This document shows positions 4,030 to 22,200 of a stretch of DNA of 64,000 nt, one piece after another; the first letter of the stretch is position 1; every line of letters starts with the position of its first letter. The stretch lies in the NCBI GenBank assembly GCA_963847595.1, contig CAWKAJ010000001.1, positions 601,258-665,257 of the forward strand, in the 5' to 3' direction. The position numbers and the translations under genes are program-made. This DNA comes from an uncultured Chloroflexia bacterium (GTDB taxonomy: Bacteria > Chloroflexota > Dehalococcoidia > SZUA-161). The notes below the pieces were generated by a model. The model ran no database searches and had not been told where the DNA came from. It saw only the letters and a program-made list of their open reading frames with translations.

Positions 4030-5583
4030 ATGAGCATGGGTTCGAAGCCGCTAAGAGAGAAGCTGACAGCGCTCGACAAGATGGGCCACAGGCTCAGGCA
4101 GGGCGGCAGCCTGGCCAGAATAGAGAGACATCGCGCCAAAGGTAAACTCCTAGCGCGCGACAGGATAGAGAGGCTTCTCGACCCCGATACTTTCCAGGAG
4201 CTTGACCTCTGGGGCACCCCTATGGCTACAGGGACTCTCACCGACTATAAAAAGGGCCCTGCAGATGGCGTTGCTGTAGGCTACGGCCGGGTAAACGGAC
4301 GCCCTGTCTACGTCTGGTCGCAGGATGCCACCGTTTTCGGCGGCACCGTAGCCACAGTCCATGCCCGAAAGATAACCATGGTCATGGAGAAGGCCATACA
4401 GGCCAGGGTTCCGATTGTCGGCATCATCGACTCCGAGGGCCCGCGAATCGAGGACGCCATTCAGTATTATCGCTTCTATTCCCCCGAATCTATGGTCTAT
4501 TTTCAGACCCTGGCCTCAGGCGTAATTCCCCAGGTCTCTCTGATAATGGGGCCCTGCGTTGGCGAGATGGCCATCTCCGCCTCTTTAGCTGATTTCGTTT
4601 TCATGGTCAGGAATACCAGCCATATGCACGTAGCGCCGCTTCCTGAGCGCAAGGCTGCCGAGAAGGTGGGCAATGCCTCGGTACATGCTTACGATACCGG
4701 CTGCTGCGATGTGCTTGCTGAAGATGATGAAGAATGCCTGCGTAAATGTCGTGAGCTATTGAATTACCTGCCTTCGCATAACGCTGAGCCTGCTCCGGTC
4801 ATAGACACCGGCGACGACCCCGACCGCAGGGAGGAAGAGCTTCTGGAGATAGTCCCCTTCAATATGAAGAAGGCCTTCGACATGCACCGCATAATTTCCC
4901 TGATTGTAGACAACGGCAAGCTGTTTGAGATAAAGCAGCAGTGGGCAACCAACCTGATAACGTGTTTTGCACGGCTGGCCGGACAAACGGTGGGCTTCAT
5001 AGCCAATAACCCACAGTCCCTGGGAGGCTCCCTGACACTCGATGCTGCCGATAAGATGGCGCGCTTCGTCAGGTTCTGCGATGCTTTCAACATACCCCTG
5101 GTCTGGCTGGCAGATACCCCTGCCTTTCTGCCCGCAGTGGAAGAGGAGACCCGGGGCCTGATACGGCACGGCTGCAAAGTGGTATTCTCCAATGCCGAGG
5201 CTTCGGTGCCTCAAATCACCATCGCCATACGCAAGCTCTACGGAGGTGGAGGAGTAGCCATGCCCGGCACGACTCTGGGTGGCGACCTCGATGTGGCCTG
5301 GCCCTCTGTAGAACGCGGCCTCATGGGTCCGGAGGCGGCAGTATCCATCATCTACAGGAAAGAGCTGAGAGCCCTTAAGGACAAGGATGAAGCCGCATTA
5401 AAAGAACGGCATGCTCAGAGGGTCTTGGAGATGCAGCAGAGGCTGCGCCACCTTGAGCGCGAGTGGGGCCAAGAGTTTATCGACCCTCGTGACACCCGCC
5501 CTTTCCTTATCAAAGCCCTCAAGACATTTGCCCGCAGAGAAGAAGGCCGCCCTCCCCGCAAACACGAAAACATGCGCCTCTAA
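4030..5583 (+). CDS. acyl-CoA carboxylase carboxyltransferase subunit (PccB/MmdA/GcdA family), paralog 1
   Basis: Carboxyltransferase signature blocks (DSEGPRIEDAIQYYRFYSPES, GPCVGEMAISASLADF). Likely start MSMGSKPLREKL at 4030 or 4036. The track ORF starts further upstream at 3961. Confidence 0.88.
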   Translation: MSMGSKPLREKLTALDKMGHRLRQGGSLARIERHRAKGKLLARDRIERLLDPDTFQELDLWGTPMATGTLTDYKKGPADGVAVGYGRVNGRPVYVWSQDATVFGGTVATVHARKITMVMEKAIQARVPIVGIIDSEGPRIEDAIQYYRFYSPESMVYFQTLASGVIPQVSLIMGPCVGEMAISASLADFVFMVRNTSHMHVAPLPERKAAEKVGNASVHAYDTGCCDVLAEDDEECLRKCRELLNYLPSHNAEPAPVIDTGDDPDRREEELLEIVPFNMKKAFDMHRIISLIVDNGKLFEIKQQWATNLITCFARLAGQTVGFIANNPQSLGGSLTLDAADKMARFVRFCDAFNIPLVWLADTPAFLPAVEEETRGLIRHGCKVVFSNAEASVPQITIAIRKLYGGGGVAMPGTTLGGDLDVAWPSVERGLMGPEAAVSIIYRKELRALKDKDEAALKERHAQRVLEMQQRLRHLEREWGQEFIDPRDTRPFLIKALKTFARREEGRPPRKHENMRL

Positions 5584-8209: not shown

Positions 8210-8215
8210 ATGATA

Positions 8216-8255
8216 CAGTTGTAGGGTGGGTGGGTTCCCTTCCATTTCACCGGCA
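8216..8255. repeat. repeat family H9 copy (gttgtagggtgggtg ... ccatttcaccg), left flank of ADH cassette
   Basis: Shares the core with 9349-9440 and 9711-9772. Confidence 0.6.
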
Positions 8256-8296
8256 TCCTTGCCAGTTGAAATTAAAAGTAAATTTGGAGGAAGCTT

Positions 8297-9286
8297 ATGA
8301 AAGCGATTGTATATACAAAATACGGACCACCCGATGTTCTTCAGCTCAAAGAGATAGCCAAACCTATTCCCAAGGACAATGAAGTACTAATAAAGATACA
8401 TGCCACAACAGTAAATAGAACCGACTGCGCAACAATTAGAGCAATACCTTTTTTCATGAGAATATTTACAGGACTACTCAAACCAAAAAAACAAATTCCC
8501 GGAACTGCATTTGCTGGAGAAATTGAAGCGGTTGGTAAAAGTGTATCGTCTCTAAAAGTAGGAGATAAAGTGTTTGGATTTGATGACCTGGGCTCAGGAT
8601 CTCAGGCCCAATACACGACAATATCAGAAGATAAAGCGCTGACAACAATACCAAGAAATACAACATTTGAGCAGGCTGCAGCTAGTACTGAAGGTGCGCA
8701 TTATGCGTATAATTTTATTAAAAAAGTGAACCTGAAAAGTGGTCAAAAAGTGCTCGTTAATGGCGCAACAGGAGCTATTGGTTCAGCAGCAGTTCAACTT
8801 CTAAAATACTTGGGCCTTAAAGTTACTGCAGTATGCAATACGAAAAACATAGAATTAGTAAAATCATTAGGAGCCGATAAAGTAATTGATTATACAAAAG
8901 AAGATTTTACGAAAGATGAAGAAAAATATAACTTCGTTTTTGATACTGTTGGGAAAAGTTCATTTTTCAAATGCAAACCATTGTTACAATCGGGCGGAAT
9001 TTATATTTCATCGGACTTAGGTTATATGGCTCAAAATGTTTTTTTACCACTTATTACACCGATTATTAAACCAATGATCGGTAATAAAAAAACCATATTT
9101 CCAGTTCCTACAGATATTAAAGGAAGTATACTTTTAATCAAAAAGCTCATTGAGGAAGGAAAATTCAAAGCGGTTATAGATAGAAAATATCCGCTGGAAC
9201 AAATTGTCGAGGCGTATAAGTATGTCGAAGCAGGGCACAAAACGGGAAATGTGGTCATTACTGTGGAGCATAACAACAAAACCTGA
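8297..9286 (+). CDS. zinc-type alcohol dehydrogenase / quinone oxidoreductase (MDR superfamily), low-GC (apparently foreign)
   Basis: 329 aa MDR pattern (NRTDCATIRA..., GATGAIGSAAVQL Rossmann). By eye the gene is roughly 40% GC against roughly 57% in the neighbouring genes. GGAGG RBS is present. Confidence 0.85.
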   Translation: MKAIVYTKYGPPDVLQLKEIAKPIPKDNEVLIKIHATTVNRTDCATIRAIPFFMRIFTGLLKPKKQIPGTAFAGEIEAVGKSVSSLKVGDKVFGFDDLGSGSQAQYTTISEDKALTTIPRNTTFEQAAASTEGAHYAYNFIKKVNLKSGQKVLVNGATGAIGSAAVQLLKYLGLKVTAVCNTKNIELVKSLGADKVIDYTKEDFTKDEEKYNFVFDTVGKSSFFKCKPLLQSGGIYISSDLGYMAQNVFLPLITPIIKPMIGNKKTIFPVPTDIKGSILLIKKLIEEGKFKAVIDRKYPLEQIVEAYKYVEAGHKTGNVVITVEHNNKT

Positions 9287-9348
9287 CAAAGCGCTATACC
9301 CGACCGGTATTCCGCTGCGCTTCATGGCGGCAGGCAAGCTCCATGAGA

Positions 9349-9440
9349 AGTTGTAGGGTGGGTGCAGTCCGTCTCAGGCAGGACGAAACCCACCATTTAC
9401 ATTCTGGGGATTGGTGGGTTACATTTCATTTCACCGCTCT
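9349..9440. repeat. repeat family H9 copy (agttgtagggtgggtgNagtcc...gacgaaacccaccatttacatt)
   Basis: Inverted gggtggg/cccaccc arms. A related copy is at 9711-9772. Confidence 0.65.
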
Positions 9441-9448
9441 ACGATACC

Positions 9449-9655
9449 TTATTGCGGAAACTCGCTCACTACTGCCAACCGTAACGTTGGTTCGTATTTT
9501 TTAAGACTTCCAAAAGCTATTCTTGCTGGGAAGCCATGACTTATGCGCCACTGTTCGTGTTCTGAATCACCAGCGTATGCAACATGTTTAACCATGTCTC
9601 CCCAAGGCCACCTCCGGTGGCACATAGGGCACATGAAAGGCTTACTGAGATTCAT
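9449..9655 (-). CDS. hypothetical small protein (68 aa, CPMC..H..H)
   Basis: ORF between two H9 repeat copies. No recognisable family. Coding status is uncertain. Confidence 0.25.
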   Translation of the reverse strand: MNLSKPFMCPMCHRRWPWGDMVKHVAYAGDSEHEQWRISHGFPARIAFGSLKKYEPTLRLAVVSEFPQ

Positions 9656-9710
9656 AGGTGCCTCCTCCCTGTTCGATGCCTAAATATCATGATTTTTCAA
9701 ATAGTTCACA

Positions 9711-9772
9711 GAAGTTGTAGGGTGGGTGTAGTCCTTCTTGGGAAAGACGAAACCCACCATTTACATTTTCAG
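9711..9772. repeat. repeat family H9 copy
   Basis: agaagttgtagggtgggtgtagtccttcttgggaaagacgaaacccaccatttacatt. Confidence 0.65.
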
Positions 9773-9773
9773 G

Positions 9774-10442
9774 CTATATTTCCTCTTTTGTCCTCGGAGG
9801 TAAGGGGGCAATTAACCATCCGCGTTTTGGATAGGCAAACCCGACGCTGTCTCTACTAAAAAGCATAGCGCGTCTGTACTGTGGTGAATGATTACACCAT
9901 TTCTTCAAATATGACTTTACTTGCCTATATCGGTTCCTTTTGGGTGTTCTATTCTCCCTTAAATCATCGTCGACATATTCCAAGAAGTAGAGAATCGGTT
10001 TTTGCAGGTTCTTGGATTTATAGACGTCTTTCAAGTCGCGAATATCCTTTTCGGTAAAGGTCAATGGGACAACTTGCCCACCACCACGTTTGATTTGGAC
10101 AGCGGCTAGGAGCGGTAATTCCTTTGCAAGTTCTCCTCTAGGGCGGTCCCAGTTGGACTGGGCCTCACTTGCTTTGCTCGGTGCCCACAGAACCAAGTCA
10201 ATGGGGCTTCTAGTCACGCAAGGCCATTCCAGCCGAGCCAAACATATCGTCGAATCTACCCCTGAGTTGGCTGCAAGTGACTCTCTCGTCCATGCCATTA
10301 AGCATGCAGCTATTTCGTGTTCATGGTAAAAATTAAAGGCATCATCACCTTGAAACTGAAATGCAAGCCGCTTCACGCTATTCTCAAATGCTCTCAGTAC
10401 TTCTAAAGACGTTGAATCCCTGTCTGCATAAAACTTTGACAT
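9774..10442 (-). CDS. hypothetical protein, possible PD-(D/E)xK nuclease-like fold
   Basis: 222 aa. The spacing HEHEI ... SPIDLVLW ... AAVQIKRGG fits the E / hhhD / (E/Q)xK pattern. GC is lower than in the core genes. Nothing else is recognisable. Confidence 0.4.
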   Translation of the reverse strand: MSKFYADRDSTSLEVLRAFENSVKRLAFQFQGDDAFNFYHEHEIAACLMAWTRESLAANSGVDSTICLARLEWPCVTRSPIDLVLWAPSKASEAQSNWDRPRGELAKELPLLAAVQIKRGGGQVVPLTFTEKDIRDLKDVYKSKNLQKPILYFLEYVDDDLRENRTPKRNRYRQVKSYLKKWCNHSPQYRRAMLFSRDSVGFAYPKRGWLIAPLPPRTKEEI

Positions 10443-10599
10443 TTCATCGTACTCCTTTATTTGTTAATCCCACCAAAGAACTTATCTGGCGATATTCTAC
10501 AGGGATATGCATATTCGTGCCAGAAGCCTCTTACAACCACCTGTTGACATACCTGGTTATCCAGAAGCATAATTGCCCTGGGAGCAGCAGTGTAAGTAT

Positions 10600-12159
10600 A
10601 TGGCCAAATACATCATAGCCCACGATGTAGGCACCAGCGGAAACAAGGCTGTCCTGGTAGATACCGAGGGGCATGTCCACGGCAAATGCTCCGAGCCCTA
10701 CAGGGTCTGCTATCCTAGGCCCGATTGGGCCGAGCAGGAGCCTGAGGACTGGTGGAAGGCAGTTACCCGCACCACCAGGCTCCTTCTGGAAAAGACAGGC
10801 GTATCGCCCGCCGATGTGCTCTGCGTGACACACTGCACACAGATGCTGGGCATCGTGCCTATAGACCCCCAAACGGGACCGCTCCGGCCCGGGATAATCT
10901 GGCTGGACAACAGGGCCTGCAATCAGGCGAATCGCGTCATGAGAAAGTTCATCAGCGCTCGCCTTTTCGCTCTTATCGCCGGTGCCGCCCTTTGCGGCAA
11001 GGACGGCATCCCCAAACTGCTCTGGCTGAAAGAGGAGGAGCCTGATATCTATAGTAAGATGAGCTGTTTCCTCGACGTCAACGGCTACCTTATCTATCGC
11101 AGCACCGGCAACATAGTCATGGAGTGGACCGGCGCCTCGGTGTTCGGGCTGGACCTCAAGAAAAAGCAGTGGCTTCGCAGCATCTTCCGCTACGTGGGGC
11201 TCGACCCCGCAAAGTTTCCGCCCCTGGTGCGGCCTATCGATAAGGTGGGAACGCTGTCCCGGGAAGCAGCCAGCGAATGCGGGCTGCTGCAGGGCACGCC
11301 TGTCATGGCAGGTGCGGGAGACGCCCCCTGCGCTGCGGTGGGCTCGGGCGCAGTCGGCGAAGGCGAGGGGCACGTCTACCTCGGCACATCGGGCTGGGTC
11401 GGCGTGGTCACAAAACGCACGCCCAAAGGCAAGTGCGGCGCAGCCTCGATACACTCGGCAGACCCCGATAAGGCGTTCCTGTTCGCTGAGACCGAGACCG
11501 CAGGGGCTTGCATGCAATGGATGGCCGAGCAGTTATACAGCTCCGAAAAGATAGACCCCAACATCGGCGATGTGTATGCCCTCATGGACGAGAGAGTTGC
11601 CCGCATACCGCCGGGTTCCGGCTATCTGCTCTTCACGCCCTGGATGTACGGAGAGAGGGCGCCCATCAGCGACTGCAACGTGCGCTCCAGCTTTCTGAAC
11701 CTGAGCGCCGAGCATACCCGCGACCACCTGCTCCGCGCCGTCTACGAGGGGATAGCTTACAATATCAGGTGGATCGTGGAAATCATCGAGAAGGAGTACA
11801 AATTCCCCCTTCCTGATCTCAGGGTAATCGGCGGAGGAGCCAAAGCTGCGCCTTTGATGCAGATTCTGTCAGATGTAACTCAACGAAAGGTGGAGACTGT
11901 CCGCTACCCGCAAGAAGCAGGCGCGGTAGGGGCAGCCATGGTGGCGGCGGTCGGCCTCGGTATCTATCCGAATTTCGAGGCACTAAAAAAGGTGGTGAAT
12001 GTGGACAAGGCCTTCGAGCCTGAGGAAAAGAACCGGGGTATCTACGATTCCCTCTACGGCTCTTACCGGGAGGCATACAGCAGCCTTCGCGGCTTCTATA
12101 AAAGGCTCAATGAGCGGAGAGCGATTCAGCAACGTTCCTGCAAGGAGGTGCGTGGATGA
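10600..12159 (+). CDS. FGGY-family carbohydrate kinase (xylulokinase/glycerol-kinase-like)
   Basis: MAKYIIAHDVGTSGNKAVLVD N-terminal phosphate-1 motif and a full-length FGGY architecture. The track ORF starts 27 nt earlier. Confidence 0.88.
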   Translation: MAKYIIAHDVGTSGNKAVLVDTEGHVHGKCSEPYRVCYPRPDWAEQEPEDWWKAVTRTTRLLLEKTGVSPADVLCVTHCTQMLGIVPIDPQTGPLRPGIIWLDNRACNQANRVMRKFISARLFALIAGAALCGKDGIPKLLWLKEEEPDIYSKMSCFLDVNGYLIYRSTGNIVMEWTGASVFGLDLKKKQWLRSIFRYVGLDPAKFPPLVRPIDKVGTLSREAASECGLLQGTPVMAGAGDAPCAAVGSGAVGEGEGHVYLGTSGWVGVVTKRTPKGKCGAASIHSADPDKAFLFAETETAGACMQWMAEQLYSSEKIDPNIGDVYALMDERVARIPPGSGYLLFTPWMYGERAPISDCNVRSSFLNLSAEHTRDHLLRAVYEGIAYNIRWIVEIIEKEYKFPLPDLRVIGGGAKAAPLMQILSDVTQRKVETVRYPQEAGAVGAAMVAAVGLGIYPNFEALKKVVNVDKAFEPEEKNRGIYDSLYGSYREAYSSLRGFYKRLNERRAIQQRSCKEVRG

Positions 12160-13469
12160 ATACTGAAGAAATCCTGAGCTTACCCTCGGCGCTGCCGGAC
12201 GGGGTGGACTACGATGAGTATCTCATCGCCACCTATCTGGCTTCTTTCGCGGCGGTATGGCCCATTCCCGTGCTTGCCGAGGCGCTCGCTATCGAGCAGA
12301 GCACAGGCACCTGGGTAGCAGTTCCGGGCGAGACCTCGGAGGTACGCTGCCAGCACGTAGCCAAGGTGTTGGGCGTATATGAGCTGCCTGACTACGAGTT
12401 CGAGGTGCCCCAGTCTCTGGAAACAAGGAACTGGATTATCCAGATAGCCTATCCTGAAGTTAACATCGGGGAACAGATACCCATGCTGCTGACTACAGTG
12501 GTAGGCAACATCTCGATGGGTGGAAATATAAAGCTGCTGGACATACGTTTCCCCAAGAAATTCGTCGCCGGGTTCAAGGGACCGAAATTCGGCATCGCAG
12601 GCATCAGGAAAATCCTGAAAATCCCCAAGCGGCCCCTGCTCAACAATATGATTAAGCCCTGCACAGGCTATAAGTTAGAGGTTGGCGCCGAGTTGTTCCG
12701 GAAAGCCGCCACGGGCGGCTGTGACATCATAAAGGACGATGAGCTCATCGCCGATGCCTCGTTCAACTCCATAAAAGGGCGCGTCAAGCGCTACATGGAG
12801 ATCGAGAAACAGGTCTACGAGGAGACCGGCGAGCATACCCTGTACACCGTGAACATAACGGACAAGATACCGAAGGTCTTTCAGAACGCCAAACGCGCGG
12901 TGGAGCTGGGCTGCAACGCCTTGATGATAAACTATCTCGCAGTGGGATTGCCCGTAATGCAGGCGCTGGCGGAGGACCCCAAGATAAATGTCCCTATCCT
13001 GGCGCATATGGATGTCGCCGGCGCCATGTATATGTCGCCGCTGCACGGCATGAGCTCCCATCTTGTGCTGGGCAAGCTGCCCCGCCTCGCCGGGGCCGAT
13101 GTCGTGGTCATACCGGCCCCCTACGGCAAAGCGCCGGTCATACCCGATAAGTTCCGCAACGTCGCCAAGAATCTGTCTTTCCCTTTGTACCATCTCAAGC
13201 CGACATTCCCCATGCCCTCCGGCGGAATCACGCCGTCCATGGTGCCGCAGGTAATCGCCGACCTGGGAACCGATATCGTAATCGGCTCGGGAGGCGGCAT
13301 TCACGCCCATCCCGGGGGGCCCATCGCAGGCGGGAAAGCATTCCGTCAGGCCATCGACGCTACACTGCAGGGCATTTCATTGGAGGAGTACGCTAAGGAC
13401 CACCCGGAGCTTGATACTGCACTCAAGGAATGGAGCGACCCGTTCGGCAAAGGGGTCGCCGCCCGGTAA
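12156..13469 (+). CDS. RuBisCO large-subunit-like protein (form IV RLP)
   Basis: The large-subunit core is conserved (GGCDIIKDDE, i.e. K201/D203/E204 equivalents, and SGGGIHAHPGG). The residues equivalent to K177 and R295 are replaced (MIKPCTG, ILAHMDV), arguing against a bona fide carboxylase. The start overlaps the kinase stop by 4 nt. Confidence 0.85.
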   Translation: MNTEEILSLPSALPDGVDYDEYLIATYLASFAAVWPIPVLAEALAIEQSTGTWVAVPGETSEVRCQHVAKVLGVYELPDYEFEVPQSLETRNWIIQIAYPEVNIGEQIPMLLTTVVGNISMGGNIKLLDIRFPKKFVAGFKGPKFGIAGIRKILKIPKRPLLNNMIKPCTGYKLEVGAELFRKAATGGCDIIKDDELIADASFNSIKGRVKRYMEIEKQVYEETGEHTLYTVNITDKIPKVFQNAKRAVELGCNALMINYLAVGLPVMQALAEDPKINVPILAHMDVAGAMYMSPLHGMSSHLVLGKLPRLAGADVVVIPAPYGKAPVIPDKFRNVAKNLSFPLYHLKPTFPMPSGGITPSMVPQVIADLGTDIVIGSGGGIHAHPGGPIAGGKAFRQAIDATLQGISLEEYAKDHPELDTALKEWSDPFGKGVAAR

Positions 13470-13486
13470 CAGGAAAGGAGGAGGAA

Positions 13487-14704
13487 ATGTCCAGGGTTAC
13501 AGTCTTAGGAGGCTCAGGAGCAGTCGGGAGCGTTGCCGCAGAAACCCTCGCTTCGAGCGGATTTTTTTCCGAAATAGTTCTCGCTGACGCCCGGCTGGAA
13601 CAGGCGAAGAAGCTGGCCGCAAAGCTCGGGGCGAAGAAGGTCTCCGCTGTCAAATTCGATGCGGCAGACCCCCGGAGTATCAAGGTAACGGTCGCCGGCT
13701 CGGCGGTCGTCCTGAACTGTGTCGGCCCGTTCTACAAGTACGGCCCCGTAATTTTGAAGGCGGTGATAGATTCTAAAATCAACTATGTCGATGTTTGCGA
13801 TGATTTCGATGCCACAGAGGAAATGCTGGGCATGGACAAGGCAGCGAAGAAGGCCGGCGTTTCAGCCCTCATCGGGATGGGCAGCTCGCCCGGCATCGCC
13901 AATGTCCTGGTCAGGTTCTGCGCCGATTCGATGCTCGACCGTGTGGAAGCGGTGGATATCTACCATGCCCACGGCGGCGAAAAGATAGAAGGCCCTGCGG
14001 TAGTCAAGCACAGAATCCACTCCATGAAAGCGGACGTGCCCATGTTCCTCAAAGGCAAGTTCACCACTGTCAGGCTCTTCGATGATAGCGGCAGGGCCTT
14101 AGAGGAGGAGGTCGAGTTCAGGGATGTGGGCACGTACGGCGTTTATGCCTATCCGCATCCGGAGACCATCACCCTGCCCCGGTATCTGAAGGGAGTGAAG
14201 CGGGTAACCAACCTGGGGCTGGTGCTGCCGCCTGCTTATGCAGAGCTGATAAAGGGGATGGTAAGGCTGGGCGTGACGGACGAGGAACCGGTTGAAGTCC
14301 AGGGACACAGCATCATCCCGCTCGAATTTGCGGTTGCCTTCATACTCTCCAGGCGGAAGAAGCTGATGCAAGAAGCCGGCCTCGCCGGGCCCATGGGCTG
14401 TCTCAAGATAGTAGTGAAAGGTTCCAAGGACGGCAAAAAGAGCACCTATATCTTCTCCATGTCCTCGAAGAGGCAGGGCATGGGCGAAGGCACAGGCATT
14501 CCCGCAGCGCTGGGTGCGATGCTGATGGGTACGGGCCGGATAAAAGGGAAAGGCGTCCTGCCGCCCGAAGCATGCATCGAGCCCATGGAACTGCTCGAGC
14601 TGGCACGCACCAAGGTCAGCGCCGGCGGAGGCAAAGGTTTTCCCATCGTTATCGAATATATAGACAGCTCCGGCAAATCGAAGACTGTGGACCTTTTTAA
14701 ATAA
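13487..14704 (+). CDS. saccharopine-dehydrogenase-like NAD(P)-binding protein
   Basis: MSRVTVLGGSGAVGSVAAETL Rossmann N-terminus and a Sacchrp_dh-like overall pattern. Strong RBS AGGAAAGGAGGAGG. It sits 18 nt after the RLP stop. Confidence 0.8.
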   Translation: MSRVTVLGGSGAVGSVAAETLASSGFFSEIVLADARLEQAKKLAAKLGAKKVSAVKFDAADPRSIKVTVAGSAVVLNCVGPFYKYGPVILKAVIDSKINYVDVCDDFDATEEMLGMDKAAKKAGVSALIGMGSSPGIANVLVRFCADSMLDRVEAVDIYHAHGGEKIEGPAVVKHRIHSMKADVPMFLKGKFTTVRLFDDSGRALEEEVEFRDVGTYGVYAYPHPETITLPRYLKGVKRVTNLGLVLPPAYAELIKGMVRLGVTDEEPVEVQGHSIIPLEFAVAFILSRRKKLMQEAGLAGPMGCLKIVVKGSKDGKKSTYIFSMSSKRQGMGEGTGIPAALGAMLMGTGRIKGKGVLPPEACIEPMELLELARTKVSAGGGKGFPIVIEYIDSSGKSKTVDLFK

Positions 14705-14738
14705 CTGTCCATCGTCCTGGGATATGCAAGCGTGATTA

Positions 14739-14850
14739 AGGGGGCGACCCGCCTTCGGCGGGTCGCCCCCTTAATATGTCATTGCGAGGAGTCCGCCTCT
14801 GGCGGACGACGTGGCAATCTCCCCGAGCCCGTGTAGCGCCGTGACAGGGA
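14739..14850. repeat. repeat family B copy 1: GC hairpin (ggggcgacccgccTTCGgcgggtcgcccc) + tgtcattgcgag..ccgccNNNNggcgg..gcaatctc hairpin
   Basis: Copies at 16135-16190, 23838-23950 and 58680-58950. The first hairpin may double as the operon terminator after 14704. Confidence 0.7.
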
Positions 14851-14857
14851 GTGCAGA

Positions 14858-14950
14858 GGGACAACAGTCCCTTTGCCGGGGGTTTGGGGGTGTCCCCCAA
14901 TTTCCTTTCCTCCCCCAAGACTGGGGGATACAGGGGGTTCAAGAAGGTTG
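14858..14950. repeat. G-rich triple-hairpin repeat, family A copy 2
   Basis: gtgcagagggacaacagtccctttgccgggggtttgggggtgtcccccaa...cccccaagactgggggatacagggggttcaagaag. Confidence 0.7.
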
Positions 14951-14966
14951 CCAAACACTCCCCCCA

Positions 14967-15275
14967 TTACATGGACATTAGCGGGTACACTGCCACCTGT
15001 CCGCCATTGGCTATGACCGGACAGCCTTTAGCCAGCGCAACCGCGGCATCGAGGCTTTTAGCCTGCAATATGCTGTACCCGGTGACAGGTTTAGCTCCAG
15101 TGCTCTTGACGCCGCCTTTACCGACGATTTTCCCCGGTTGAGCCGGGGCGCCTCCATCCACGACAGCCTTGCCGAGGTCTGCGAACCATTTCATCCACTT
15201 AGCCATCGTCTTCTCGACCAGTTTCGGATCGGTTTCCATTTCGCCACCGTAGTATACCAGTAAGTATTTCCCCAT
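14967..15275 (-). CDS. YciI-like (DGPF/YCII-related) small protein
   Basis: 102 aa. MGKYLLVYYGGEMETDPKL...W..W pattern typical of YciI-like proteins. Confidence 0.55.
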   Translation of the reverse strand: MGKYLLVYYGGEMETDPKLVEKTMAKWMKWFADLGKAVVDGGAPAQPGKIVGKGGVKSTGAKPVTGYSILQAKSLDAAVALAKGCPVIANGGQVAVYPLMSM

Positions 15276-15479
15276 CTTCTCCTCCCTTCAAGTGGCTTGC
15301 AGAAGCATCACCCGAATAGAAAGGTGCAGGCACTCTGCAACAGCCCTATAAAAAATTTTACGCAGCTAAAATAAAGAAGTCATAAAATTAAGGAAAAAAA
15401 GGTTAACAAGTTATGACATTTGAGGCAAGGTCTTTGCAGCTATGCGTGGGGGCGCTATAGATTGCTCGGCGCAGAGATA

Positions 15480-15899
15480 CTATAGTTGACCTCTGCTTGC
15501 CGTCTGCCTCTTATCGGGAGCCAGCCTCTTTCTCGCCATAGCAGCTTCGACTCGCTCGACTACATCGCGGGTGTCGAAGGGTTTTGTCACATAGTCACAG
15601 GCGCCCAGGCGGATACTCTCTTCTACTGCTTCCCTGTCCGGGGTTGGCTCGACCACAATAAACTGAGTCTCAGGACAACGCTCAACCAGCTTGGGCAGCA
15701 ATTCTGCCGCCGGCGTTCTCGACATCATAGCGTCCAGGATAACCACATCGAATTCGTACTCTGCGCACTTATCCAGAGCATCCAGTCCAGTCGACACAGC
15801 AACACAGTAATAGCACTCTCTAGACAGGCTCGACAAGAGCATTCTGCCTGCCGATGCGTCGCCTTCGACTATCAAGATAGAACCCTTAAATATGCTCAT
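15480..15899 (-). CDS. stand-alone response-regulator receiver domain protein (CheY-like)
   Basis: 139 aa with the ILIVEGD...DVVILD...K receiver pattern. No output domain. Confidence 0.85.
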   Translation of the reverse strand: MSIFKGSILIVEGDASAGRMLLSSLSRECYYCVAVSTGLDALDKCAEYEFDVVILDAMMSRTPAAELLPKLVERCPETQFIVVEPTPDREAVEESIRLGACDYVTKPFDTRDVVERVEAAMARKRLAPDKRQTASRGQL

Positions 15900-16106
15900 T
15901 ATGTCCTATTTCCGATCAGTCCCCGGAGAGCCTTCCCTAGCCCTAATTACGTTTTAGCACGATGGTACTGGGTGGTCAACCTCAAAGTACTTAATTCTTC
16001 ATCACTTTTCCCACCATTTTTGCGGCTCTCACACGCAAGATTATTAAGCAACACATGGCAATCCCGAGTCCTCTGGACGCTCAAAAAGACCTCTCAGCAA
16101 CCAGGG

Positions 16107-16190
16107 AGTAATGTAGGGGCGCACTGCAGTGCGCCCCTATAATATGTCATTGCGAGGAGTCCGCCCCAGGCGGACGACGCGGCAATCTCT
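16107..16190. repeat. repeat modules H4 (gtaggggcGCACTGCAGTGCgcccct) + family B hairpin (copy 3)
   Basis: taatgtaggggcgcactgcagtgcgcccctataatatgtcattgcgaggagtccgccccaggcggacgacgcggcaatctc. Confidence 0.7.
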
Positions 16191-16326
16191 CCCAGCCTTC
16201 CTCTTCCGCTCTGTGGTAAATTATCGCGTGTTCGAAAATCTATACTTTATAACGCGGAAGTAGATAGGGAAGCTGTCTCAAAAGCTCCTTGAGGAAACGG
16301 AGTTTCGACCTCAAAGCTAATACCTC

Positions 16327-17835
16327 CTATTTCTTTTCATGTTTCTCTACGAGGTCAGCCACGACTATTCCCGAGAGGATAGTGGAGGGGACACCGCCTC
16401 CTGAACATGTAGAAGCTCCTGCCAGATACAACCCCTTGATGCACTTCGATTTCGAGGAGGGACGGAACACGGTTATACTGGTGACATCCTGTCTCAAGGC
16501 ATAAATTGCGCCCTCGGGCGACAGCAGTCTCCTTTCAAAATCCACCGGCGTGCCAAATTCAGCCACTTTGACATGTTCTGCCAGGCCGGGGATGTACTTC
16601 TTTGAATAATAGTTGATTATATTTTCCTGGAGGCGCGGCTTCTCTTTGTCCCAGTCGGATTCCTTCAATTTGTACGGACCGGGAGCCAAGGTCAGGCATA
16701 TAATGTGATGACCTGGAGGGGCTAGAGCAGGGTCTGAAGCTGATGTCCAACTGATGATGCCGAACTGTTCAGTCGGGTAATAGCCCTTCTTATAGACATT
16801 CCACCAGAAGTCATTCAGCTCGTTCATCGGCAGCGTAGCGAGCGTATGATGGGATTCGAGGGGTGGCTTGTAGTCAACACCCAAATACATCATGGGAACG
16901 GCTATGGAATATTCATAGCTCTTCAGCCCCTTACGCACCAGCCAGGGCAAGTGTTCCTCTCCAATCATATTTAAATATAGTTGCTTGGCATTTATGTCGG
17001 ATACAACTATGTCCGAGGTAATCTCGGTCCCATCCGTTAAAGCTACTCCCATAGCTTTGCCGCGGTTTATCATCACCCGTTTGACACGGGTATTCAGTCT
17101 GACTTTCGCGCCCAATTTCTCTCCGCACCTCTGCAGGGCTGCGGGAATTTGTATCATGCCCCCCTTTGAATAGTACATCCCCCTCCGCTCCAGGCATGCC
17201 AGCATGGCTGCGTACCCGGGGCACAGCTCGGGAGGCAGTCCCAGATAGAAGGTTTGATAGCCTACAGATTCACGAACTCGAGCATCCTTGAAATATTTAT
17301 TTATTTCATCCTGATAGCTTCTCAGGAACATAGGCAGAAACGGGATAAGCCCGGGCGCGCGCCTTATTAGCCTGGACATGTCGCCTAATGTATTGGTCGG
17401 GCTTTGAAAAAAGCCGCCCGCAAAGGCATTGCCCAGGAATTTATTCATGTAATTGAAGTATTTGTACCAGCCTTTCTGGTCTTTGGCAGCTATCTTGCCG
17501 ATTTGCCTGGCTGTTTCCTCGCTGGACAGTGGGTACTTCAGTCTGGTGCCATCTTTCATAATCACACTGTAAACCGGATCGACCGATACCAGATTAACCT
17601 CCCGTTGCAACGAAGTCCCCAGCCTTTGGAATGCCAGGTCTATCTGATCGGCTGCTTCAATTAGAGAGGCACCTAAATCGAAGCGAAAACCATCCTTCTC
17701 GAAAGTTGAGCAACACCCTCCTACGCGCTCGCTTTGCTCGAGAATGAGCACTTTGCGCCCCTGTTTTGCCAGCAGGGCTCCTGAGCTGAGTCCTCCCAGC
17801 CCTGCACCGATGACGATGGCATCATAGTCCGACAT
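16327..17835 (-). CDS. FAD-dependent oxidoreductase, phytoene-desaturase (CrtI/amine-oxidase) family
   Basis: MSDYDAIVIGAGLGGLSSGALLAKQGRKVLILEQSERVGG dinucleotide-binding N-terminus. About 500 aa, CrtI-like. Confidence 0.85.
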   Translation of the reverse strand: MSDYDAIVIGAGLGGLSSGALLAKQGRKVLILEQSERVGGCCSTFEKDGFRFDLGASLIEAADQIDLAFQRLGTSLQREVNLVSVDPVYSVIMKDGTRLKYPLSSEETARQIGKIAAKDQKGWYKYFNYMNKFLGNAFAGGFFQSPTNTLGDMSRLIRRAPGLIPFLPMFLRSYQDEINKYFKDARVRESVGYQTFYLGLPPELCPGYAAMLACLERRGMYYSKGGMIQIPAALQRCGEKLGAKVRLNTRVKRVMINRGKAMGVALTDGTEITSDIVVSDINAKQLYLNMIGEEHLPWLVRKGLKSYEYSIAVPMMYLGVDYKPPLESHHTLATLPMNELNDFWWNVYKKGYYPTEQFGIISWTSASDPALAPPGHHIICLTLAPGPYKLKESDWDKEKPRLQENIINYYSKKYIPGLAEHVKVAEFGTPVDFERRLLSPEGAIYALRQDVTSITVFRPSSKSKCIKGLYLAGASTCSGGGVPSTILSGIVVADLVEKHEKK

Positions 17836-18161
17836 TTGGCACCTCACTTACCGCCGCAGTATAAATTACGTGACATTATCCGGGGCACTCTATTTTGCGT
17901 GCCTTTTGGCTTATTCTTCGCACTCGATATTTCAAAAGCATTATAGCCCTAACAGACCAATAATACACCCCAGCTACCGGGAAGAGATGAGTGAATGATA
18001 TCTTGCGGCAGGTTTCGGCTCCAGGACAAATCCTTGACTTTTTGAGGATTCGGATGATAATACTCAATAAAACACTTGAATAGACTTTGCTAGAAGTAGC
18101 TTGAGAAGCTATCTTTACGTTACATCAGTATATATGAAATAGTGATCGTACGGGAAAGCAT

Positions 18162-19334
18162 ATGAGACGCTCGACACCACGTGTAGCAAGAATCTTGGTT
18201 TATGCCTTGCTGACAGTTCTGGCCATTGTGCCCTTAGCAGCAGCGTCGCACTCGGCGGCATCACCAGCATCCCCGATTAGCCTGACTGGCTCTGTGCAGG
18301 TTTCATTTCCGAATTCAATCACTTTTGATGTTACGGCGCAAAGCGATGCCAACATCACTAAGCTCAGGCTGCATTACATTGTAGATGAGCAGAACTTTGC
18401 TCAGGTGGTTAGCGAGACTTGGCCGCAGTTTACTCCCTCAACATCGGTGGATACCCAGTGGGTCTGGAACATGCAAGAAAGTGGCGGACTCCCGCCGGGG
18501 GCACAGGTGGAATATTGGTGGACAGCCCAGGATGCAGCAGGCGACAGCGCTCAGACAGACACTTCCACGGTCTCTTTCGACGATAACAGATATAACTGGC
18601 AATCTATTACCACGGGGCCTGTTACCCTGCTATGGTATAGCGGAAATCAGCTGTTCGCGAACACACTCATGAACGCTGCCCAAGAGGGGTTGCAGAGGAT
18701 TCAAAACGATTTGGGCCTCACGCCCCAGGGCCACGTTCGCATCTACATCTATGCCAGTACCCAGGACCTGCAAGGAGCTATGCTTTTCGCGCAGCAATGG
18801 GAGGGTGGCGTGACCTTCGAGGGTTTTAACATCACCGCTATCGGCGTAGCCCCAGACCAGTTGTCTTTCGGCGAGGGGGCCATTCCCCACGAACTGACAC
18901 ACTGGGTTGTGCACCAGGTTACCTTCAATGACTATGGCGCCGGGCTGCCCCCCTGGCTGGATGAAGGCCTGGCCACTTACATCCAGGGCACTGTCCCTGA
19001 CTATCAGGATGCGCTCAATTACGCAATCCAACACAACCAGTTGATATCTGTGCGCAGCCTTTCCAGCCCTTTCTCTGCGATAACAGAACAAGCCCTGATA
19101 TCGTATGGGGAAAGCCAGAGCATCGTAACGTTTCTTCTCCAGACATATGGTAAGGATAAGATGGATCAATTGTTGAACGTGTTCCATCAGGGTGCCGGCT
19201 ACGACGACGCACTCAAACAGGTCTATGGCTTTGACCAGGACGGCCTCGAAGCTCTGTGGCTGCAGAGCCTGGGTATCAACATAGCGCTCGACCTCCAGCA
19301 AGAGCTTGCACTGGCCGCTGCCTCTCCGGCGTAG
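18162..19334 (+). CDS. secreted HExxH-motif protein (putative zinc metallopeptidase-like)
   Basis: Signal peptide (MRRSTPRVARILVYALLTVLAIVPLAAA) and a single HELTHWVVH motif. No further family assignment is possible by eye. Confidence 0.55.
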   Translation: MRRSTPRVARILVYALLTVLAIVPLAAASHSAASPASPISLTGSVQVSFPNSITFDVTAQSDANITKLRLHYIVDEQNFAQVVSETWPQFTPSTSVDTQWVWNMQESGGLPPGAQVEYWWTAQDAAGDSAQTDTSTVSFDDNRYNWQSITTGPVTLLWYSGNQLFANTLMNAAQEGLQRIQNDLGLTPQGHVRIYIYASTQDLQGAMLFAQQWEGGVTFEGFNITAIGVAPDQLSFGEGAIPHELTHWVVHQVTFNDYGAGLPPWLDEGLATYIQGTVPDYQDALNYAIQHNQLISVRSLSSPFSAITEQALISYGESQSIVTFLLQTYGKDKMDQLLNVFHQGAGYDDALKQVYGFDQDGLEALWLQSLGINIALDLQQELALAAASPA

Positions 19335-19399
19335 TTTTATGTGTCTAAAATCTGACTAAGTGTCGATATGCTAACGTGGAGGTTCCATTGAACCGTAAG

Positions 19400-20983
19400 A
19401 TGCCTTTCAGAAGCGCAAGCCGTAGGCTCGTGCTGCTTCTGCTCTGTCTCACGTTGCTTGCTCCAACAGCGACAGCTTGCCGTATCGGCAGCAGCGGCAC
19501 CACGCTGAACTTGGCTGGTGCCGGGCCCATCACGCTTGACCCGGCGCTGGCGGCTGATGCAACGTCCGATTCGTATATAGTACAGATTTTCGGCGGACTG
19601 GCACGGCTCGACCAGAACCTCCAGGTAGCGCCGGACATTGCCTCAAGCTGGGACATCAGCAGCGACAGCAAAACGTACACCTTCCATCTACGCCACGACG
19701 TAAAGTTTGACGATGGAAAGCCGGTCACAGCAGCCGATTTCAAGTATTCCTGGGAGCGCGCACTCAATCCGGCAACCGGTTCTTCTACGGCCGGGACGTA
19801 CCTGAGCGATATCGTAGGGGCAGCCGACGTGCTGTCAGGGAGAGCGACGCAGCTCAGCGGCGTTAAGGTCCTGGATGACTACACCATTCAAGTCACCATC
19901 GATGCCCCGAAACCCAATTTCCTGGAAAAGATGGCATTCCCAACTGCCTTCGTAGTGGACGAGACAAATGTCCAATCGGGCAGTACCTGGTGGCAACATC
20001 CCAACGGCACGGGGCCGTTTAAGCTGCAAAAATGGCAGCAGGGCCAGGTGCTTGTTTTGCAACGAAATGATAACTACTACGGGGAAGAGGCTAAGTTGAA
20101 CCAGGTGGTATTCAGTCTGACCGGCGAAAATCCGATGCAGTTGTATCAGGAAGGAAGTATAGATGTATCCTTCGTTAGCTCCGATTATATGGGATTGGTG
20201 ACTGATCCTAGCAATCCTATTTCAAAGGAACTGCAGGAGTTCCCCGAACTAAGCTTGTATTACATCGGCTTTAATTGTTCCGCACCACCCTTTGACGATG
20301 CCAGTATCAGACAGGCCTTTTCCTTAGCGGTGGATAAGTCGAAAGTGATCTCGCTTGCTGCAGATAATGTGGTGGCCGTAGCCAATGGCATCCTCCCACC
20401 CGGAATGCCCGGATACAACGCCAATCTCCAAGGGCTCCAATTCGACCCCGACAAGGCCAAGCAGCTCATTGCAGCCTCAAAATACGGTAACGTTTCAAAT
20501 TTGCCTCCGATAGTGCTGACCACATCCGGCGTGGGCGGGGGCATCTCAGGCATCCTCGGAGGTGTTATCGAACAGTGGAGGCAGAACCTCGGCGTTGAAG
20601 TAACCGTAAGGCAACTGGAGCCGGAAACATTCCTTTATGGAATCAACCAGGAGAAGGACCAGCTATTTGACAACGGCTGGCTCGCTGACTACCCCGACCC
20701 TCAGGACTTCCTTGACCTGCTGTTTCACAGCGGCGCCCAGAACAATATAGGAAATTACAGCAATTCACAATTAGACGCGTTGCTTGACCAGGCGGCAATT
20801 GAGCAGGACCCCAATGCCCGTTTACAGACCTATCAGGCTGCGGAACAGCTAATAGTCCAGGATGCCGCGGTATTGCCGTTGTACTTCGGTACCAACTATG
20901 TAGTGGTCGAGCCGTATGTCAAAGATTACGTGCTGAGCCCGCTGGGTTACCCCCTGCTGAGTCAAGTCAGTATTCAGAAGTAA
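19400..20983 (+). CDS. ABC transporter substrate-binding protein, family 5 (peptide/nickel type)
   Basis: Lipoprotein-like signal (LLLCLTLLAPTATAC) and a family-5 SBP pattern across about 520 aa. The start is uncertain (GTG 19376, TTG 19388 or ATG 19400). Confidence 0.85.
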   Translation: MPFRSASRRLVLLLLCLTLLAPTATACRIGSSGTTLNLAGAGPITLDPALAADATSDSYIVQIFGGLARLDQNLQVAPDIASSWDISSDSKTYTFHLRHDVKFDDGKPVTAADFKYSWERALNPATGSSTAGTYLSDIVGAADVLSGRATQLSGVKVLDDYTIQVTIDAPKPNFLEKMAFPTAFVVDETNVQSGSTWWQHPNGTGPFKLQKWQQGQVLVLQRNDNYYGEEAKLNQVVFSLTGENPMQLYQEGSIDVSFVSSDYMGLVTDPSNPISKELQEFPELSLYYIGFNCSAPPFDDASIRQAFSLAVDKSKVISLAADNVVAVANGILPPGMPGYNANLQGLQFDPDKAKQLIAASKYGNVSNLPPIVLTTSGVGGGISGILGGVIEQWRQNLGVEVTVRQLEPETFLYGINQEKDQLFDNGWLADYPDPQDFLDLLFHSGAQNNIGNYSNSQLDALLDQAAIEQDPNARLQTYQAAEQLIVQDAAVLPLYFGTNYVVVEPYVKDYVLSPLGYPLLSQVSIQK

Positions 20984-21048
20984 GGCTACAGGGGTATAAT
21001 CTACTTGAACTTTAGTCTTTCAGTAAAATGTTTTGAGGGGGTAGTGAT

Positions 21049-22200
21049 ATGCCGAAGAGTTTAAAGATTTCTCTGATAGTTGTCCTGTCTATCTGTGTGC
21101 TTGCCCTGGCTTTTAGTGCGGGATGCCTTACAAATACAGGGACACCCTCATCTACCCCGGGGCCTGATACGGGGTTGCTGGACCAGGCGTGGACTGATAT
21201 AACGCAGCACTATGTGGTGCCCTCTATAGCAAACTCAACTGCCCTTAACGAGGGAGCGGTCATGGGAATGGTGCAGGCATTAAATGACCCCTATTCGGCT
21301 TATCTGAGTCCGGATGAGTACAAATTGACCCAGAGTGCGTTGACAGGCACTTTCAGCGGCATCGGTGCTCAGGTAGAGCTGAACAATGCTAACCAACCGG
21401 TTATCCTGGCTCCCTTTGAGAATTCTCCGGCTGCAAAAGCCGGTATCAAGACCGGAGATGTGATTCTGGCCGTGAACGGCGAGTCCACCCAGGGGTTGAG
21501 CTTGACTGAGGTGATATTGCTTGTCCGCGGTCCCTCGGGTACCACAGTCAAACTGCTTATCCAGCACGCAGGCGAAACTACGCCTGTTGAGATAGATGTA
21601 GTCAGGGCGCAAATTAATGTTCCTGACGTCACCTATCGAATGATGGGGAATATATCTTATATCGACATTACCAGCTTTAGCGAAAATACCAACGCTGAAC
21701 TGAACACAGGTCTCCAGGCGCTGGACCTAAAAGATAGCACCGGTATTATTCTGGATTTACGCGACAACCCCGGTGGCCTTGTAACTGACGTAGTGGATGT
21801 CGCCAGCCATTTTATTAAAACGGGCGTCATCGTCACCCTGGTGGACAACAAGGGCGATCGGTCCTCCCAATCAGCCCACCCTAACGGCGTTTTCACCGAT
21901 CTCCCTATAGTGGTTTTGGTAAACCAATATACCGCAAGTGCTAGCGAGGTTCTCTCGGGGGCCTTACAGGATTATCACAGGGCCACTATCGCCGGTAACA
22001 CCACCTTAGGTAAGGGAAGCTATGATTCCTTCTTCCTGCTCAGCGATGGTTCAGCCATATACTTAACTATCGGCCGCTGGCTGACGCCTGACGGACGGGA
22101 GATTGAAGGGAAGGGTATCACTCCGGACTATGTGCTGACACAGACCGGTGATCAGGAGATCCAATGGGCAATCGATTTCTTAAACAAAGCCGGGCAATAG
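21049..22200 (+). CDS. S41-family C-terminal processing (tail-specific) peptidase with PDZ domain
   Basis: PDZ segment (GIGAQVELNN...PAAKAGIKTGDVILAVNG) and an S41 catalytic region (...NQYTASASEVLSGALQD...). Signal peptide. GAGGGGG RBS. Confidence 0.85.
   Translation: MPKSLKISLIVVLSICVLALAFSAGCLTNTGTPSSTPGPDTGLLDQAWTDITQHYVVPSIANSTALNEGAVMGMVQALNDPYSAYLSPDEYKLTQSALTGTFSGIGAQVELNNANQPVILAPFENSPAAKAGIKTGDVILAVNGESTQGLSLTEVILLVRGPSGTTVKLLIQHAGETTPVEIDVVRAQINVPDVTYRMMGNISYIDITSFSENTNAELNTGLQALDLKDSTGIILDLRDNPGGLVTDVVDVASHFIKTGVIVTLVDNKGDRSSQSAHPNGVFTDLPIVVLVNQYTASASEVLSGALQDYHRATIAGNTTLGKGSYDSFFLLSDGSAIYLTIGRWLTPDGREIEGKGITPDYVLTQTGDQEIQWAIDFLNKAGQ

Follow-up and report, generated by a model that had tools for sequence, protein, structure and literature searches.

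What does a form-IV RuBisCO-like protein (RLP) do when its gene stands between that of a sugar kinase and that of an enzyme related to saccharopine dehydrogenase? The question is raised by an operon at positions 10600-14704 (+) of a 64,000-nucleotide stretch of DNA, here called the window, from an uncultured Chloroflexia bacterium of the Dehalococcoidia lineage SZUA-161 (GenBank assembly GCA_963847595.1, contig CAWKAJ010000001.1, positions 601,258 to 665,257 of the forward strand). To our knowledge only a handful of RLP functions are established, namely the MtnW enolase, the 5-methylthioribulose-1-phosphate isomerase and the decarboxylases and transcarboxylases of the apiose pathway, and each of them changed views on the evolution of RuBisCO chemistry. 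The operon described here is probably the sign of a route not yet described, one that handles a phosphorylated, sugar-like compound whose amino group is either there already or acquired on the way.

Three tightly packed genes, read as one operon from their open reading frames (ORFs) and Pfam matches, follow each other in the order kinase, RLP, dehydrogenase. The first (10600-12159, +) encodes a 519-aa FGGY-family carbohydrate kinase of the xylulokinase/gluconokinase-like subfamily, and its stop codon TGA (12157-12159) overlaps the RLP start codon at 12156 by 4 nt (ATGA). The RLP gene (12156-13469, +; 437 aa) has a Shine-Dalgarno sequence, AAGGAGGTG, 6 nt 5' of its ATG. A 17-nt gap containing a second, strong Shine-Dalgarno sequence, GGAAAGGAGGAGG, separates its stop codon from the third gene (13487-14704, +), which encodes a 405-aa NAD(P) enzyme of the saccharopine-dehydrogenase fold, a putative amine/aldehyde oxidoreductase. 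An earlier prediction made from the bare sequence (hereafter the original prediction) had recognized the overlapping FGGY kinase gene and the saccharopine-dehydrogenase-like gene after the RLP; the operon span that it gave, 12156-14704, holds the RLP and dehydrogenase genes but leaves out that of the kinase.

Is the RLP a RuBisCO? It has both domains of the large-subunit superfamily (Pfam PF00016, RuBisCO_large, 160.5 bits against a cut-off of 30.1, E 7e-47; PF02788, RuBisCO_large_N, 38.5 bits against 20.7) as well as the K201-D203-E204 carbamylation and metal motif, and so belongs to that superfamily. The form-IV call of the original prediction, with its motifs GGCDIIKDDE (aa 187-196, nt 12714-12743) and SGGGIH (aa 378-383, nt 13287-13304), is borne out by these domains and positions; DIIKDDE (aa 190-196) is invariant in 81 orthologues, that is, near full-length proteins with >400 aligned residues and 63-100% identity, two redundant loci being left out. 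We searched 1.84 billion cluster representatives, took 99 full-length representatives of the superfamily from the matches and aligned the RLP with them; the alignment holds 103 sequences, bona fide RuBisCOs among them. At spinach positions E60, T65, W66, N123, T173, K175, K177, K201, D203, E204, H294, R295, H298, H327, K334, S379, G380, G381, G403 and G404 the RLP has E, T, W, N, M, K, C, K, D, E, H, M, A, V, K, S, G, G, G and G, respectively. This active-site string, ETWNMKCKDEHMAVKSGGGG, is conserved in the 81 orthologues, 16 of the 20 positions being invariant and the remaining four nearly so.

The RLP keeps the metal and carbamate site, K175, H294 and the glycine loops and, in addition, E60, N123 and the loop-6 lysine K334, whose retention is unusual for an RLP and sets the protein apart from MtnW in a way that the original prediction had not seen. 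The equivalents of E60, T65, W66, N123, K175, K201, D203, E204, H294, K334, G380, G381, G403 and G404 are invariant in the orthologues, and that of S379 is found in 80 of them. The assignment of K334 does not depend on alignment gaps, because loop 6 has the same GxD-to-GK spacing as in RuBisCO. Four residues are replaced, and essentially invariantly so: K177 by Cys169, R295 by Met285, H298 by Ala and H327 by Val. The Cys and Met had been mapped by eye before and stand in just those columns of the alignment, and the catalytic set is not intact. These replacements set the RLP outside the bona fide RuBisCOs, as do its scores against their models (rubisco_III 269 against a cut-off of 497, PRK04208 245 against 438, PRK13475 118 against 489). 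Its earlier description as not a CO2-fixing RuBisCO is thus very likely right for ribulose bisphosphate, but the retained E60, N123 and K334 leave carboxylation-type chemistry on a monophosphate formally possible. As judged by these residues, the active site is nearer to that of true RuBisCO than MtnW's is. We take the glycine loops to be the first phosphate (P1) site and R295, H298 and H327 to be ligands of the second phosphate (P2). On this assignment the P1 site is kept and the P2 site is lost, and the pattern fits a monophosphate substrate.

How constant is the company that the RLP keeps? A scan of one genome per species gave 80 loci with RLPs of 63-97% identity, spanning Dehalococcoidia, Anaerolineae, Thermoflexales, Caldisericota (Ca. 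Cryosericum septentrionale included), Actinomycetota (Ca. Geothermincola, Ca. Solincola and relatives) and Bacillota; the clade is carried by no fewer than 80 genomes at species level and by hundreds of metagenome clusters. A Dehalococcoidia metagenome-assembled genome (MAG) has an 87%-identical RLP in the same kinase-RLP-dehydrogenase trio amid unrelated flanks, with a glycyl-radical enzyme and methyltransferase on one side and an integrase on the other. We counted a locus as well flanked if it had at least 3.6 kb of sequence upstream and 1.7 kb downstream. In all 54 such loci tblastn found an FGGY gene directly upstream of the RLP gene. The third gene, sought within 4.5 kb, encodes a saccharopine-dehydrogenase-fold enzyme in 25 loci, a class-III aminotransferase resembling HemL (glutamate-1-semialdehyde aminomutase) in 10 and one resembling gamma-aminobutyrate (GABA) aminotransferase in 12. 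Seven loci have neither type, although in one of them (L042) a dehydrogenase gene lies just past the 4.5-kb limit; a dehydrogenase and an aminotransferase together were found in none.

The dehydrogenase is not a fixed member of the module: it adjoins the RLP or lies within 4.5 kb of it in 31 of the 82 loci scored (32 with L042), and about half of the lineages have an aminotransferase in its stead. Mapped on the RLP tree, the type of third gene switches repeatedly, both inside Caldisericota and Dehalococcoidia and from one lineage of Actinomycetota to another. Its place varies as well: Dehalococcoidia have the dehydrogenase gene downstream, Actinomycetota have it upstream, the gene for the GABA-type aminotransferase stands upstream of that of the kinase, and the HemL type usually follows the RLP. 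Because dehydrogenase and aminotransferase are mutually exclusive and relatives of both act on amines and carbonyls, we read the swap as non-orthologous displacement at one amine/carbonyl step. This alternation goes beyond the original prediction and points to nitrogen chemistry. In one locus (L036) the RLP-dehydrogenase pair occurs twice in inverted orientation, at 1893-4444 and 9347-11898, with identical similarity values; the cause is probably a palindrome introduced in assembly rather than a true duplication.

The link between RLP and aminotransferase reaches beyond this clade, since sister RLP clades at 47-60% identity, apparently archaeal, retain the aminotransferase. An aminotransferase gene precedes that of a 60%-identical RLP (P0121) on an archaeal-looking contig (L086), and the genes after that of a 47%-identical RLP encode an FGGY kinase, a class II aldolase, an Rrf2 regulator and an aminotransferase. 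With the GABA-type partner of the bacteria, the aminotransferases of the two loci share 48-55% identity. The module does not extend to the whole supergroup with the ETWNMKC motif (the residues at RuBisCO E60 to K177), because the contexts of the sister RLP clades in Anaerofustis (a SorC regulator only), P0306, P0316 and Massilistercora are unrelated.

The kinase matches FGGY_N (163.8 bits, 7e-48) and FGGY_C (114.5 bits, 7e-33). Its nearest characterized relatives are XylB, GntK, LsrK and glycerol kinase, and in the PDB it matches XylB (2itm) and gluconate kinase (3gbt) best. The best NCBIfam model, XylB TIGR01312, gives 330.8 against a cut-off of 380.25, and PRK15027 gives 197 against 912; both scores leave it outside the D-xylulokinases as these models define them. 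The dehydrogenase matches Sacchrp_dh_NADP (PF03435; 68.2 bits, 1e-18) and Sacchrp_dh_C (PF16653; 47 bits, 5e-12), and among its relatives by sequence in the PDB are carboxyspermidine dehydrogenase and saccharopine reductase; the carboxynorspermidine synthase model NF043000 gives 53.3 against a cut-off of 800 and does not claim it. An AlphaFold model of the dehydrogenase with a predicted local distance difference test (pLDDT) score of 67.8, residues 163-247 being below 50, served fold-level matching only. The top 18 fold matches, PDB 8deb, 8h4z, 3abi and 1ff9 among them, come down to carboxyspermidine dehydrogenase, L-lysine dehydrogenase (3abi), saccharopine reductase and two structural-genomics proteins without a name; all those of the 18 that are named form or cleave a C-N bond, at an aldehyde or a terminal amine. 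In fold and sequence together, the closest relatives of the third gene are L-lysine 6-dehydrogenase, saccharopine reductase and carboxyspermidine dehydrogenase, at an identity of about 20%. Lysine metabolism also offers a precedent for the choice of enzyme: there the step between aldehyde and terminal amine is carried out either by the saccharopine-dehydrogenase fold (lysine 6-dehydrogenase or saccharopine) or by a class-III lysine epsilon-aminotransferase. Unlike these lysine and polyamine enzymes, the third gene here stands in a phospho-sugar context and not in one of amino acids or polyamines.

How might the three enzymes work together? We give about even chances to a route for a phosphorylated ketose-like compound from which nitrogen is removed, or to which it is added, with the RLP as an enolizing isomerase that does not carboxylate; the substrate type, the order of steps and the type of reaction are what we infer from sequence and gene context. 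The substrate of the FGGY kinase, which would be phosphorylated at a terminal CH2OH, may be a small ketose, a deoxy-ketose or a compound like a polyol (an amino-ketose may also be considered), and the monophosphate would bind the RLP through its intact P1 site. For the second step, the conserved residues and the reactions of characterized RLPs suggest that a carbamylated Lys193-Mg2+ center (with Asp195 and Glu196), Lys167 and His284 enolize the ketose phosphate, while loop-6 Lys325 may latch onto Glu47 of the partner RLP subunit. The carbonyl would be relocated by a 1,2- or 1,3-proton-transfer isomerization, as in the Rhodospirillum rubrum RLP and unlike the MtnW enolase, and CO2 would not be fixed. 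In the third step, to which the non-orthologous displacement points, a dehydrogenase or class-III aminotransferase would interconvert carbonyl and amine on the same carbon skeleton. It may supply the kinase by turning an imported amino-polyol or amino-sugar into the kinase's substrate; alternatively, it may dispose of or aminate an aldehyde or ketone that arises downstream. Some lineages have a class II aldolase, which would cleave a ketose-1-phosphate to dihydroxyacetone phosphate (DHAP) and a short aldehyde.

Our favored functional model for the RLP, though apparently only distantly related to it in sequence, is the DeepYkr RLP of R. rubrum and Rhodopseudomonas palustris, a 5-methylthioribulose-1-phosphate 1,3-isomerase in which enolization at a Mg2+/carbamate center shifts the carbonyl along a pentulose monophosphate without carboxylation (PMC5893883). 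Unlike the DeepYkr enzyme, the RLP described here would receive its substrate from an FGGY kinase and not from MtnP/MtnA, and no cupin of the methylthioxylulose 5-phosphate (MTXu-5-P) methylsulfurylase type was seen among the recurrent neighbors scanned with Pfam. The structure 3qfw, which we take to be RLP1, the DeepYkr protein from R. palustris, matches the RLP with 94 bits only.

For the module as a whole, the fuculose/rhamnulose, DHAP-shunt and sulfoquinovose routes offer a comparison. In these a sugar kinase (of the FGGY family for fuculose and rhamnulose) is followed by a class II aldolase, which yields DHAP and an aldehyde, and by an enzyme that disposes of the aldehyde. The module shares with such deoxy-sugar routes the kinase, the predicted ketose phosphate, the class II aldolase (in four loci) and the putative aldehyde-acting enzyme. 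It differs in that an RLP would act between kinase and aldolase, that the aldehyde would be handled by an aminotransferase or saccharopine-dehydrogenase fold and not by an alcohol or aldehyde dehydrogenase, and that the aldolase is inconstant.

Several points weigh against the proposed isomerase route. Inside the 4.5-kb limit, seven of the 54 well-flanked loci lack an amine enzyme, and the class II aldolase adjoins the module in four loci only (L081, L083, L052 and L087, that is, two Actinomycetota loci, Ca. Cryosericum and the archaeal-like sister locus). The equivalence of dehydrogenase and aminotransferase rests on mutual exclusion and family chemistry, and the dehydrogenase, whose model is of low confidence over residues 163-247, could form a secondary amine in opine-like fashion, as carboxyspermidine dehydrogenase does. 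There is also a clash of regiochemistry. XylB, GntK, LsrK and glycerol kinase phosphorylate a CH2OH next to CHOH, whereas known RLP substrates carry their phosphate next to a carbonyl, so that either the RLP would have to run the reverse of the R. rubrum reaction or the regiochemistry of the kinase would have to differ. The RLP might, for example, convert a xylulose-5-phosphate-like compound to a ribulose-1-phosphate-like isomer, which would fit the occasional aldolase. Finally, the retained E60, N123 and K334 could mean chemistry beyond simple isomerization.

Does the module break a compound down or build one up? MFS (major facilitator superfamily) transporters, a TIGR00529 membrane protein and TetR regulators are recurrent, non-constant neighbors, and a TetR, Rrf2 or TrmB regulator stands beside the module in several loci. 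The best single hint of an imported substrate is a co-directional string of genes in a Caldisericota MAG (L042, 7999-16242), which encodes the FGGY kinase, the RLP, a family-5 binding protein, two Opp-type permeases, a metallo-beta-lactamase-fold protein, the dehydrogenase and a GlmU-like nucleotidyltransferase; a complete Opp-type ATP-binding cassette (ABC) importer sits between RLP and dehydrogenase. Because transporters (MFS, Opp-type ABC, TIGR00529) and repressors stand beside the module in several loci, catabolism or salvage is favored over biosynthesis. In a biosynthetic module a pentulose or tetrulose would be turned into a keto- or aldo-phosphate and aminated to an amino-polyol phosphate, for example a precursor of a lipid head group or cofactor. 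The amine enzymes are indeed of types that run readily towards amination (carboxyspermidine dehydrogenase, GntE-like and HemL-like aminotransferases), many loci have no transporter adjoining the module, and the nucleotidyltransferase-like gene after the dehydrogenase gene in L042 is of a sugar-phosphate kind. However, the commonest recurrent neighbors are transporters and substrate-type repressors (TetR, TrmB, Rrf2), no downstream transferase is conserved, and the variable, island-like contexts with integrases and insertions are more typical of accessory catabolism; we consider biosynthesis unlikely. A further conserved gene between kinase and RLP was considered and rejected: where 0.9-1.3 kb separate the two, as in some loci, the gap is filled by unrelated inserts (a TetR gene, a repeat protein, two short ORFs on the reverse strand).

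The proposed isomerase may also be set against an RLP that carboxylates, decarboxylates or transcarboxylates a monophosphorylated substrate. That RLPs are capable of carboxyl transfer is seen in OiaC and OiaX of the apiose pathway (3-oxo-isoapionate-4-phosphate decarboxylase and transcarboxylase/hydrolase, respectively), which act on 3-oxo-isoapionate 4-phosphate and, like the RLP here, have a dedicated kinase in a sugar catabolic operon. That kinase is of family DUF1537 and has an acid-sugar substrate. The retained set as a whole (the carbamylated Lys, K175, H294, K334, E60 and N123) is conserved in the 81 orthologues, and the aligned proteins with a lysine at MtnW position 98 (K98-type proteins) have lost E60, N123 and K334. 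The RuBisCO-like spacing of loop 6 speaks for such chemistry too, and the residues replaced are mostly ligands of the second phosphate. Yet K177 and H327, here Cys and Val, both belong to the canonical catalytic and binding set, K334 and E60 may only close the active site, and there are no CO2-related recurrent neighbors. The OiaX model gives 193.4 bits against a cut-off of 700, and the partner kinase is FGGY; there is neither an acid-sugar kinase (DUF1537) nor an acid-sugar context, and the amine enzyme of the module has no counterpart in the apiose pathway. Carboxyl chemistry of this sort strikes us as improbable. A bolder version would see in the clade a living link from RLPs to true RuBisCO, with everything needed for enolization and CO2 addition still in place (carbamate, K175, H294, K334, E60 and N123) but with one phosphate site only. 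It would (de)carboxylate a ketose monophosphate, perhaps one with an amino substituent, that the FGGY kinase supplies, while the amine enzyme processes a non-phosphorylated cleavage product. This version is a long shot; if true, it would mean a second natural substrate for RuBisCO-type carboxylation.

The function that many automatic annotations suggest, a divergent MtnW in methionine salvage, fares worse. The Joint Genome Institute (JGI) calls many orthologues 2,3-diketo-5-methylthiopentyl-1-phosphate (DK-MTP-1-P) enolase, the names given elsewhere being generic. The best NCBIfam and PDB matches are MtnW proteins, and the nearest characterized proteins are the MtnW enolases 3fk4, 2oek and 2zvi, at about 300 bits over nearly the full length. 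MtnW/YkrW of Bacillus and Geobacillus also resembles the RLP in its carbamylated-Lys/Asp/Glu metal site, its K175 equivalent, H294 and the P1 glycine loops, and both proteins are without K177, R295, H298 and H327. The RLP nevertheless falls below both curated MtnW cut-offs (NF007095, 400.5 against 409; TIGR03332, 360.7 against 513.6). K98-type controls, with the MtnW-type motif G-x-W-K-I-K...S-S-A-G, score 408.7-677 on NF007095 and all pass except P0155 (408.7), two of the five passing TIGR03332. Lys98 of Geobacillus MtnW (2oek), which Imker et al. reportedly identified in 2007 as the general base, pairs in the HMMER alignment with Asn118 of the RLP, an Asn that is invariant in the 81 orthologues, and the RLP keeps E60 and K334, which the aligned K98-type proteins have lost.

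Neighbor-joining trees on BLOSUM distances, built without reference RLP sequences, group the RLP with other N123-type proteins and apart from the K98-type clade, a separation and not a formal placement among the form-IV clades. No Pfam family recognized as methionine salvage (mtnK/A/B/X/D) was found in the window genes scanned, about 0-31 kb, or among the recurrent neighbor clusters scanned; the conserved partners are the FGGY kinase and amine enzymes. The RLP is therefore not what the original prediction had named as its alternative, a member of the MtnW clade with salvage genes nearby, but one of a clade near MtnW that is without its Lys98. We hold the methionine-salvage assignment to be highly improbable, and by cut-offs and residues the DK-MTP-1-P enolase label on this clade appears to be wrong. 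By the same kinds of evidence, the RLP appears to fall into none of the functionally assigned RLP families.

That kinase, RLP and amine enzyme are neighbors by inherited synteny without a shared pathway is scarcely credible: most loci come from related Chloroflexota with clearly syntenic PlsY, radical SAM and thiolase flanks, but the kinase-RLP pair is kept in no fewer than five phyla, where its flanks are unrelated, the genes have changed order and yet stay contiguous, with overlapping start and stop codons, and on archaeal-like contigs an aminotransferase still accompanies the RLP at identities as low as 47%. The PlsY, radical SAM, thiolase, MaoC, rhodanese and STAS flanks themselves recur among close relatives only and were set aside as plain synteny.

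The original prediction had also held that this gene context is none of the established RLP pathways and might mark a new phospho-sugar route. The context proves to be kept across phyla, and full-text literature searches found no description of a module of kinase, RLP and amine enzyme. On this point, as on the residues and the MtnW clade, the original prediction is supported. The fold, the superfamily and the pairing of RLPs with kinases are already known, while for the signature of the clade, its conserved FGGY partner and its interchangeable amine enzymes no description was found. The clade is common in abundant anaerobes of subsurface and sediment (Dehalococcoidia, Anaerolineae, Caldisericota and deep-branching Actinomycetota) and has archaeal-like relatives. 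Assignment of the substrate would add a reaction to the RLP repertoire and correct many 'methionine salvage' and 'RuBisCO' annotations in metagenomes, and it could reveal an unrecognized amino-sugar, amino-polyol or sugar-aldehyde route in anoxic carbon and nitrogen cycling. The retention of E60, N123 and K334 makes the clade a test case for the residues needed in carboxylation as opposed to enolization.

Where does the operon begin and end? The longest ORF of the kinase begins at a TTG at 10573. We place the gene most likely at 10600-12159, because the N-termini of homologues (MAKYIIAHDVG) match the ATG at 10600 and a promoter-like site lies at 10544-10573 (+). This sigma-70-like candidate upstream of the kinase gene, TTGACA-18-CATAAT, has 11 of 12 consensus matches; five sites of this kind occur in the region against 3.2 expected by chance, and the only extra support for the candidate is its position just 5' of the homologue-supported start codon. 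The longest ORF of the dehydrogenase begins at 13430, and its start is most likely the ATG at 13487, which fits homologues of 405 aa. After the dehydrogenase gene, a weak terminator-like hairpin at 14878-14900 (+) is a consensus match only, nine such matches being found against 5.6 expected. A search of the whole window against Rfam gave no family at gathering score and no riboswitch near the operon. A riboswitch or leader was sought at E<=1 in 9300-15600 as well, where ROSE_3 was the sole match and was judged to be chance.

Just 5' of the candidate operon promoter, about 2.3 kb at 8214-10542 have a GC content of 0.425 against about 0.55. This stretch is absent from the closest relative (L004), in which an M28 peptidase gene abuts that of the kinase, and is probably a recent insertion. 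It contains a gene resembling zinc alcohol dehydrogenases and quinone oxidoreductases (8297-9286) and a 222-aa ORF (9774-10442, -) without a Pfam match. On the other side, about 1.6 kb (14705-16326) lie between the dehydrogenase gene and a convergent FAD amine-oxidase-like gene (16327-17847, -); they hold weak ORFs only (15486-16142, by eye unconvincing) and are possibly non-coding or a decayed gene.

Two loci of sister RLPs have further neighbors. In Desulfosporosinus sp. (L088) a 46%-identical RLP (P0271) is encoded in a cluster with the order glpA-RLP-glpB-glpC-pyk-eno-glpK-glpF, the genes being so called by likeness from Pfam, with an FGGY kinase standing for glpK and a MIP channel for glpF. 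The cluster looks like an anaerobic glycerol operon and is a separate, equally unexplained RLP context. On the archaeal-looking contig L086, genes for ubiquitin-like, ThiF (E1-like), UQ_con (E2-like) and JAB deubiquitinase-like proteins (1334-4385) adjoin the aminotransferase-RLP pair, which suggests an archaeal host with a eukaryote-like ubiquitin system.

Elsewhere in the window, three co-directional ORFs at 18162-22200 encode a Peptidase_MA_2 protein, an orphan family-5 solute-binding protein (19376-20983) and, by eye, a tail-specific-protease-like protein; two of them have N-terminal hydrophobic or lipoprotein-like leaders, again by eye, and no permease was seen in the ORFs adjoining that of the solute-binding protein. 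Two further islands of low GC lie at 48001-50000 (0.419) and 62001-64000 (0.378), the rest of the window having 0.51-0.59. A cluster for acyl-CoA metabolism in two parts (1833-5583 and 25033-31374) includes a biotin carboxylase, an acetyl-CoA hydrolase/transferase and a homologue of the 2-hydroxyglutaryl-CoA dehydratase D-component, as well as three paralogous carboxyltransferases (3961-5583, 25033-26652 and 26688-28232).

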